Below are positions 18,061 to 20,399 of a DNA stretch of 64,000 bases, one piece after another. The position numbers and the translations under genes are program-made. The DNA is from Eledone cirrhosa (taxonomy: Eukaryota), in NCBI GenBank assembly GCA_964016885.1, contig OZ024754.1, positions 9,672,001 to 9,736,000 of the forward strand. Direction: 5' to 3'. The notes beneath the pieces were generated by a model. That model was not told where the DNA came from. It saw nothing but the letters and a program-made list of their open reading frames with translations, and searched no databases. Position 1 is the stretch's first letter; the number at the start of each line of letters is the position of its first letter.

Positions 18061-18753
18061 AAAGATCTGTCCTAAATGCGTGTGCGACGAGGAAACCGTT
18101 GCACACGCATTGGTACACTGCTCGGGCATTGCCGATCTGTGGGGCTATGTCGAACAACTGCTGTCAAGGGTGAGACCGATTCGGTTGACCACCGAGTCTA
18201 TTGTAACGATCAAGCCGCCTCCCCTCTTCAAAAACGAAGGAGAGGCGGTGTTTCTGTGCGTAATAGCCATGGCGAAAGAGGTTGTATGGTGGACGCGTTT
18301 GAAAGGACTGAGGTCAGACACCTTTCTCTCTGGCCAACAACTGGTCCGTTTCTTCCGATATCATTTCGGAAGAAGGATCAGGATGGAGAGAGAGGTGCTG
18401 CACCCCAGTCGTTTCTATGAAAGATGGGTGAAAGTGGCGAGAATGGCCCGTGTGAATGGGCCTTCACTCTACATCAGACTATAGGTGAGGAAGATGAAAG
18501 ACCAAGGGAGCACCCCCTCTCTGTGCTCCTGAGGAGAAGGGTTGAACACTTTTTTTCGGGGGTGTGTGCGACCCCCAAGGCGCCTCCTCCCTATTGAGGA
18601 TTTTGTTATAAAATTTATTTTGTTATATTTTATTTTATTTTTATACTTTTATATCTTGTTATTGCCTCCTCCATATTGAGGACGCCTTTGCATGTAAACT
18701 CCCCCCTTTGTACTTGTCCCACTTTTGATGCCCTGGTGGCAAATAAAAAGAAA
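18061..18753 (+). mobile_element. 5'-truncated L1/Tx1-clade LINE: ORF2 C-terminus and 3'UTR
   Basis: CPKCVCDEETVAHALVHC (CCHC knuckle)..LWGYVEQLL..AKEVVWWTR..FYERW, stop at 18484; AATAAA and A-rich end; flanked by (TCTA)n. Confidence 0.85.
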
Positions 18754-18852
18754 GTTATCTATCCATCCATTTATCTGTCTATCTTTTTACCTATCTTTCT
18801 CTCTATTCTATCTACCAGCCTACCTACCCAATACTCTATATATCTGCCTATC

Positions 18853-19840
18853 TAAGAAAGGAGCACTTGCACAACACGCTCCTGGAGTTGAGGGTTGTTC
18901 TATCGACGGGGTATTAAACAACCCATTTGTGGCGCCTCCCCCCTATTGGGGATTTCGATTGTTGTAATTGTTTGTTTTTATATTTTTTACACGACTGTAT
19001 GTAAAATCCCCGGCATGTCTTTGTATTGTCCCCTTTTCTTGTGCGCCCTTGTGGCAAATAAAGAAATATATCTATCTATCTACCAATCAATCAATCTATT
19101 TACCTACCTATCTATCTATCCATCCATATATCTGTCTATCTTTTTATCTACCTTTCTCTCTATTCTATCTACCTACCTACCAACCTACCTACCCAATACT
19201 CTATGAGATGAGGGTTGTACATTTTTTCGGGGTGTGTACAACCCCTGTGTAACGCCTACCCCCTATTGGGGATATAAATTGTTATTTGTTATTTTATTAA
19301 TAGTTTTATTTCCCCATTTGTATTTGTCCCCTTCTTTTGTGCCCTTGTGGCTAATAAAGAAATTTATCTATTTATCTATATCAGCCTGTAGGTTGAGGAA
19401 AAGGAGGAAGAGAGGAAAGGGGTACAAACTCTTTGTACTCCTGGAGATAAGGGGTGCCCATTTTTTCGGGGGTATGTGTTCATCATCATCATCATGTTAC
19501 CCATATGAAATGTCCCCCCCTATTGGGGAAAATCGATTAACTTTTCAATTGCATTTGTGATAATATTTTACATGTTTTTATTGTATGTAAACTTCCCCCT
19601 TTGTATTTGTCCCCTTCTTTTGTGTCCTTGTGGCTAATAAAGAAACATATCTATCACAACACACTCCTGAAGTTGAGAGTTGTTCTATCAACGGGGTATT
19701 AAACAACCCATATGTGGCGCCTCCCCTCCTGTTGGGGATTTCGATTGTTATAATTGTTTGTTTCAATGACTGTATGTAAAATACCCTGTGTCTTTGTATT
19801 GTCCCCTTTTCTTGTGCGCCCTTGTGGCAAATAAAGAAAT
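18853..19840 (+). mobile_element. Four further Tx1-type 3'UTR fragments separated by (TCTA)n
   Basis: About 18853-19067, 19204-19363, 19384-19646 and 19655-19840; each ends TTGTCCCC..CCTTGTGGC(A/T)AATAAAGAAA. Confidence 0.8.
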
Positions 19841-20399
19841 CTATCTCTCTGCCAATCAATCTATCTAATATCTATTTATGTAGCTACCTGTCAAATTCTT
19901 CTCTTTGTCTTTTTTTCTCTTTTCTTCTGTCTTAACTTTGTCTCCATTTTATTCACTCTTCCCCCCCCCCTCTCTCTCTTCCCTCTTCTTTCTTTCCTCT
20001 TTCTCTTCTTCACTCCTACACTCTCTCTTTCTTAATTACTATGTTCTCCCCTCTGCTTCTCTCTATTGTGCTTCACATGAAACTATATCAGATAAGGTCC
20101 GTCTGTCTGGTCATCTCTCTCTCTCAACTAAATAAATATAATTTAAATTAAATTAAATTAAAGCCCAGCTTCTCAGTATTTGTACTGAGGCAGTTACTAA
20201 CATGTCCCAGAGCTCCAATAATCACAGGTATAAATCTGAAGGTATAGTCAGAGTGGAGTATCTGAAAATTCCTCGTTAGTTCTGCATAGATATTCTCCTA
20301 AAAACCTGTGATGCTCACGCTTGGGTATCAAGCGATGGCATTACTCAAAATCTAGTCGCATCCATCATCATCATGTATGTATGTATGTATGTATAAAGT

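Follow-up and report, generated by a model that had tools for sequence, protein, structure and literature searches.

A stack of 5'-truncated Tx1-like LINE inserts in TCTA-type sequence and a sixth terminus 41 kb away suggest an insertion preference for (TCTA/GATA)n

The insert stack and a sixth terminus

The window, by which we mean the complete 64-kb stretch of DNA that was analyzed, carries on its plus strand a stack of five inserts (I1 to I5) at 18061-19839. Insert I1 (18061..18753, 693 nt) consists of the end of an ORF2 and a complete 3' UTR. Its intact ORF2 C-terminus (18062..18484, plus strand) is 140 amino acids long and covers the end of a zf-RVT zinc knuckle together with a C-terminal segment. 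Inserts I2 (18855..19066, 212 nt) and I3 (19205..19362, 158 nt) are composed of 3' UTR only. Insert I4 (19383..19645, 263 nt) starts about 6 nt ahead of the site that corresponds by homology to the ORF2 stop codon. In I5 (19656..19839, 184 nt) the 16 nt with which I2 opens are missing. Aligned at their 3' ends the inserts have different start points; all five are 5'-truncated and co-oriented. Pairwise local identities were 77-88%, except for the I2/I5 pair at 94%. I3 and I4 have their last 55 nt in common with 3 substitutions, and differ by many indels further upstream. Three lineages at the minimum, and arguably four (I1; I2/I5; I3; I4), are thus represented in the stack, and the low local identities outside the I2/I5 pair bear out the initial claim of at least three diverged subfamilies.

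TCTA-type sequence is found on both sides of every insert, as had been described for the 5' sides, and is degenerate before I3. The stack is preceded by a degenerate (TCTA)n array (17909..18060, plus strand) that includes a unit called U0 (ca. 17950-18024) and a near-pure tract at 18020-18060. The I1-I2 spacer (18754..18854) contains unit U1 (18756-18854), and the I2-I3 spacer (19067..19204) is made up of a 46-nt TCTA-type tract and unit U2 (19113-19204). The two remaining spacers are short: 20 nt between I3 and I4 (19363..19382; 2 nt plus 18 nt of TCTA type) and 10 nt between I4 and I5 (19646..19655; 2 nt plus 8 nt in TCTA phase). The TCTA-type 3' flank of I5 (19840..19885) resembles that of I2 at 33 of 39 positions. 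The host sequence is not the single (TCTA)n microsatellite of the preliminary description; a degenerate spacer unit of about 75-100 nt is present three times instead, as U0, U1 and U2.

Both strands of the 64 kb were scanned for the terminus pattern GTGGC-(0-2 nt)-AATAAA, which gave six matches. Five are on the plus strand and begin at 18736, 19051, 19347, 19630 and 19824, so that all of the five co-oriented, truncated ends of the form GTGGC(A/T)AATAAA(AA)GAAA reported earlier were recovered. The motif TATCTAT, said to follow each copy, does so in four of five cases; I5 is followed by TATCTCT. The sixth match, at 61330 on the minus strand and 41 kb from the stack, corrects the statement that no such end exists elsewhere in the 64 kb. 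It belongs to an 18-nt terminus (61315..61332, minus strand) that is 18/18 identical to the ends of I3 and I4, for which an order-3 Markov model gives an expected chance count of 9e-6. Directly 5' of this site 6 lies a pure TCTA array of 18 nt (61333..61350, minus strand). The sequence downstream of the terminus reads TATATCTATC, and the 3' flank (61305..61314, minus strand) consists of 2 nt followed by 8 nt in TCTA phase. Site 6 is the strongest evidence for targeting. A scan of the window allowing 4 mismatches in 17 positions detected no further termini of this family.

The 3' flank of site 6 adjoins an unrelated interspersed repeat with a (GAT)n tail (60837-61306) that is 90% identical to 29312-29769 and is presumably RTE-like.

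The number of insertion events in the stack was evaluated from the spacer units. U1 and U2 differ by 4 substitutions in 84 positions (80/84 identical) and I2 and I5 by 11 in 183 (172/183 identical), i.e. to a similar extent (Fisher p=0.78 for a difference). The block consisting of U1, I2 and its flank is colinear with the block of U2, I5 and its flank once I3 and I4 are omitted. These comparisons suggest that I2 and I5 were probably produced by one tandem duplication, which requires I5 to have lost a further 16 nt from its start. Independent insertion into already duplicated units is an alternative origin of the pair and not the simplest reading. Taking I2 and I5 with their flanks for what they resemble, a single insertion that was duplicated, puts the stack at about four events and not five. 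The earlier argument that tandem duplication cannot explain all copies stands for the four lineages, with duplication probably accounting for one of the five copies.

Searching a bacterial and archaeal genome collection gave 45 pattern matches, of which tblastn confirmed none. Two matches of a 21-nt terminal pattern in that search, without TCTA flanks or upstream similarity, were dismissed as chance.

Affinity of the element and its RNA 3' end

The I1 ORF matched three of 113 candidate proteins at 60-67% identity, all three having a zf-RVT domain and two of them an RT domain; across proteins with both RT and zf-RVT the identity was 56-67%. The ORF and three relatives terminate at one and the same alignment column. 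Its own zf-RVT match was below the cut-off (E 0.074), the window holding only the end of the zinc knuckle. The nearest named relative is a protein from Argonauta hians, which is 56% identical to I1 and 71% identical in the RT to another relative, P0002; an octopod is therefore the presumed host. Full-length relatives (about 1,150 amino acids, about 50% identity in the RT) carry the APE domain PF03372 and match the structures of L1 ORF2p and the L1 endonuclease, with L1 ORF2p as the best match among solved proteins. When the I1 ORF itself was compared with the PDB, nothing was found at E≤10, human L1 ORF2p included. As judged through these relatives, the ORF2 appears to have the APE, RT and C-terminal zinc knuckle of the L1 group. 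The shared 3' end and variable 5' truncation of the six copies, which range from 18 to 693 nt, are also those of an L1-group element.

Relative P0002 scored 271-315 bits against four proteins labelled YTX2 or TX1, the labels being annotations of their sources; with human L1 ORF2p it reached 174 bits. For region 140-627 the scores were 252-289 bits, versus 174 for human L1. A C-terminal profile built from I1 and 56 relatives matched three of the four labelled proteins over almost all of its length, with E values of 8e-11 to 2e-7; its match to the fourth was weak (E 0.026). The C-terminal segment thus appears to be of Tx1 type and not of mammalian L1 type. In an RT tree computed with FastTree from 45 RT regions, selected from 383 proteins and without L1 outgroup, the octopod group and its sister group formed a long-branched clade with a support of 1.0. 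Bit scores and the C-terminal profile favor the YTX2/TX1-labelled proteins over human L1, in agreement with the Tx1 type first proposed, and support classifying the element as Tx1-like, with a local support of only 0.81 for the node that joins the octopod-containing clade to the YTX2-labelled clade in this tree.

No other ORF2 fragments were found in the window by tblastn with 264 relatives, and the endonuclease and RT of the family are absent from it. Matches that extended to 18002 were spurious, with the extension crossing the microsatellite. Cluster searches with the protein returned only generic RT clusters, and no match identifiable as Kibi or Koshi occurred among the protein matches. The I1 ORF also contains an imperfect inverted self-match at 18301-18415 (74% over 125 nt).

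Recognition of a structured RNA 3' end is described as a feature of stringent LINEs (PMC3747384). Five helices were proposed for the 3' UTR of the inserts; they pair in 84 of 90 cells, with 2 two-sided changes. In the controls, slid versions of the helices paired in 33-55% and 22 of 500 shuffles matched the observed values. RNAalifold independently recovered two of the hairpins, and single-sequence folding gave z-scores of +0.1 to −2.2. A structured 3' end that may be recognized by the element's protein has weak to moderate support, because the z-scores are modest and the structure was derived from the same sequences on which it was scored. Two matches in Rfam, far below the gathering score, were regarded as chance. 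The small hairpin of I1 at 18582-18600 has a second copy at 18664-18682 (18/19 identical), and a (CAT)n expansion within I4 (19480-19497) breaks one arm of a UTR hairpin.

Target preference and proposed insertion mechanism

At all six 3' junctions the terminal GAAA is followed by two variable bases, after which 7-8 of 8 positions agree with one and the same TCTA phase. No poly(A) tract is present at any of them. Of the 12 positions that these bases occupy, 7 are off phase, compared with 2 of 48 for the eight bases that follow (post-hoc Fisher p=6e-5), and the two bases vary among copies with identical termini. If I2 and I5 are counted once, the rough chance that five junctions share one of four phases is 0.004.

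TCTA repeats are scarce in the remainder of the window. Arrays with at least 14/16 TCTA occur only twice outside the cluster, on either strand; one houses site 6 and the other, at 43987-44007, has no element terminus. Of 123,974 strand-positions outside 17900-19900, no more than 30 are preceded by a 12-mer that agrees with TCTA at 11 or more of its 12 positions, and some of these derive from the site 6 array itself. Both terminus-bearing loci of the window are TCTA arrays. A further copy of the (GAT)n-tailed repeat borders the 43987-44007 array, with the relative orientation reversed.

The 5' flanks within the stack double as 3' flanks of the preceding copies, which leaves I1 and site 6 as the only tests of a model in which TCTA is purely a tail. 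At these two sites TCTA lies upstream and an older terminus does not. The observation named in advance as evidence against targeting, TCTA on the 3' side and never on the 5' side, was accordingly not made. An empty paralogue is present as well: the end of U0 is without insert at the position of I2 and has TCTA on both sides. Candidate target-site duplications are 3-16 nt long and lie in low-complexity flanks, where they are not securely callable; a duplication of about 16-20 nt at I2 is suggestive only. The independent site 6, the constant phase at six of six junctions and the TCTA upstream of I1 and site 6 agree with the preference for (TCTA/GATA)n that was put forward initially, which we consider well supported from two loci and about five independent events. 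For comparison, a family is counted as microsatellite-specific in PMC4494074 when the target is present in >20% of its flanks; in the single 64-kb window sampled here, TCTA flanks occur in six of six copies at two loci.

We propose, with a probability of roughly two in three (0.68), that the inserts are 5'-truncated subfamilies of an octopod Tx1-like element that favors (TCTA/TAGA)n, its ORF2p nicking the repeat in fixed orientation and phase. The identity of the inserts, their 5' truncation, orientation and phase, the TCTA location at both loci, the empty paralogue and the lack of a poly(A) tract are direct observations; for the steps assigned to ORF2p we draw on its relatives and on what is established for target-primed reverse transcription. 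ORF2p, with its APE endonuclease, RT and zinc knuckle, would bind the structured 3' UTR of its own RNA, and the APE domain would nick the TAGA strand, always at one and the same position of the repeat. The cut would be GATA/GATA if the two variable bases are element-derived and GAT/AGATA if they are target-derived, between which the six junctions do not decide. The RNA end used for priming would be fixed (...GAAA, then about two variable bases), and reverse transcription would usually stop early and leave 18-693 nt. Since the repeat is restored on both sides, later subfamilies could reuse the array, by which a stack forms. Tandem duplication of a block of about 360 nt would have converted one insertion into I2 and I5, with I3 and I4 landing between them afterwards. 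By Tx1 precedent the endonuclease, to which the initial description had assigned the repeat specificity, is most likely the determinant.

Specificity could also reside in the RNA. A (UCUA)n-tailed or read-through transcript would then be combined with a loose endonuclease, and only nicks in (TAGA)n would pair with the transcript and prime. Fixed phase, fixed orientation and absence of poly(A) at six of six junctions are predicted equally by such a mechanism, three of the six junctions (I2, site 6 and I4) read or nearly read TATATCTATC, and the distinctive 3' flank common to I2 and I5 would be explicable by 3' transduction too. The two variable bases, off phase at 7 of 12 positions (p=6e-5), however fit a fixed encoded tail poorly, and PMC4494074 describes the endonuclease as the main determinant of target choice. 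We therefore consider RNA guidance unlikely, if the most serious competitor of nicking by a repeat-specific ORF2p.

Much less probable are two explanations in which TCTA is not actively selected. Broad insertion, followed by local tandem duplication and passive retention in a repeat-rich region, would agree with the triplicated spacer unit and the seemingly duplicated I2/I5 pair, and passive accumulation near CA repeats has been proposed for Waldo-A/B (PMC3812793). Duplication cannot yield four lineages with different 5' ends and 77-88% local identity, however, and such a process leaves unexplained the constant phase and the location of site 6, which lies 41 kb from the stack although just two TCTA arrays exist outside it; we regard it as very improbable. 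The same low probability is given to self-targeting, i.e. recognition of the 3' ends of older copies with TCTA being incidental. The starts of I4 and I5, just 20 and 10 nt past the end of the preceding copy, would suit self-targeting, but upstream of I1 and site 6 there is only TCTA and no terminus.

Comparison with known elements and a SINE-like family

The targets reported for Tx1 elements include (TC)n, (TTC)n, (TTCC)n and (TTTC)n, besides U2 and DNA transposons (PMC4494074). Kibi, Koshi and crocodilian families are likewise of Tx1 type and insert preferentially in simple repeats (PMC4494074), and close relatives of the element described here have an APE-type ORF2. The microsatellite targets named there are all repeats with a purine and a pyrimidine strand in vertebrates (PMC4494074), whereas (TCTA)n has TpA steps and the host is a probable octopod. 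SINEU-3 and Tx1-Mar of crocodilians also form tandem copies with short target-derived spacers by sequential insertion at one target, and SINEU-3 is a SINE that shares its targeting logic with a Tx1 partner; they insert in a Mariner transposon, with duplication of 16 nt, and not in a microsatellite as here (PMC4494074). The target of our element is (TCTA)n and not one of the TC-rich repeats of the Kibi/Koshi type. Its way of working resembles that of Kibi and Koshi, but because of the different target we did not file it as either.

Outside Tx1, the elements Waldo, Mino, Dong and Togen belong to R1, R4 and NeSL-related lineages. These non-LTR elements are microsatellite targeters too, with the motifs ACAY (Waldo), AC (Mino), TAA (Dong) and TG (Togen); lineages and motifs differ from those found here, and GATA/TCTA is in none of the lists given in the sections consulted (PMC3812793, PMC4640811).

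For Octopus vulgaris 80 L1-Tx1 families are described, 13 of them recently active (PMC13282606), and the Tx1-like family found here may be among them. The main text of that study does not contain the term 'target site', and the part of its supplement that was searched contains neither 'target' nor 'TCTA' nor 'GATA' (PMC13282606). The portions covered of PMC10294476, PMC2735965, PMC4758252, PMC4824008 and PMC8967140 contain nothing on this target or on a SINE partner. In the literature searched, with most subscription papers, Repbase and Dfam outside its scope, no report of a GATA/TCTA-targeting Tx1 element was found. (TCTA)n is probably a new motif for a known Tx1 strategy. It would extend the microsatellite targets known for Tx1 elements by repeats that contain TpA steps, and their hosts by a mollusc, and would make available an APE endonuclease acting on a tetranucleotide repeat that is very common. 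The mechanism of microsatellite targeting was regarded as not well understood in a 2013 review (PMC3812793). The finding overturns nothing, Tx1 microsatellite targeting being established and having arisen with several motifs. On the practical side, GATA markers of octopus could conceal insertions.

A second family in the window has a near-identical terminus. It comprises 17 copies by pattern (23873-24425 on the minus strand, 46804-47420 on the plus strand, and others) of about 170-190 nt, as estimated by eye from the alignment, and we take it to be a SINE from its size and copy number. ARAGORN detected no tRNA. The terminal 20-mer is identical to the Tx1-like terminus at 16 of 20 positions, a value reached by 1 of 200,000 shuffles, and the 24 window sites with at least 15/20 identity to the terminus all fall within the SINE-like or the Tx1-like family. 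Both termini have the same hairpin loop, with the middle stem pair swapped. The SINE-like copies end in GAAA plus two bases, are followed by ATT-type sequence and form tandem stacks. Exact target duplications of 14-16 nt were found for 4 of the 17 copies, as against 8 of 248 control pairings of mismatched flanks; they start 2 nt after GAAA, and one of the four is purely (ATT)n. Of the 13 copies without duplication, 8 show an ATTAT match 156-241 nt upstream. Because these duplications start after the two bases, the repeat-like 3' flank is target-derived in four SINE-like copies, which by analogy favors a target-derived 3' flank for the Tx1-like element as well.

The similar termini would fit an octopod Tx1-like radiation directed at different microsatellites, with a (TCTA)n branch and an (ATT)n sister that mobilizes the SINE, a scenario we find doubtful. 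Also tentative is the terminal hairpin that its members would share, consisting of a 3-bp stem and a CUUGU loop, then GAAA and two bases. If the radiation were real, microsatellite targeting would have arisen independently of Kibi/Koshi, a Tx1 partner could be named for a major octopus SINE, and the two branches would form a natural endonuclease pair with switched repeat specificity. The obvious alternative partner LINE of the SINE-like family is Dong-R4, which is active in O. vulgaris (PMC13282606) and targets TAA in other species (PMC3812793).

Several other repeats occur in the window. SINE fragments form short tandem units with a period of about 145 nt at 58700-59150. Long minisatellite arrays are located at 7915-8681 (16 copies of a 48-nt unit), at 9512-12736 (89 copies of a 35-nt unit) and, with a 41-nt period, from about 52600 onwards. 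A repeat of about 310-340 nt is present in both orientations at 33798-34151, 35688-36026, 44983-45312 and 57623-57931; its copies are 95-97% identical and apparently young.
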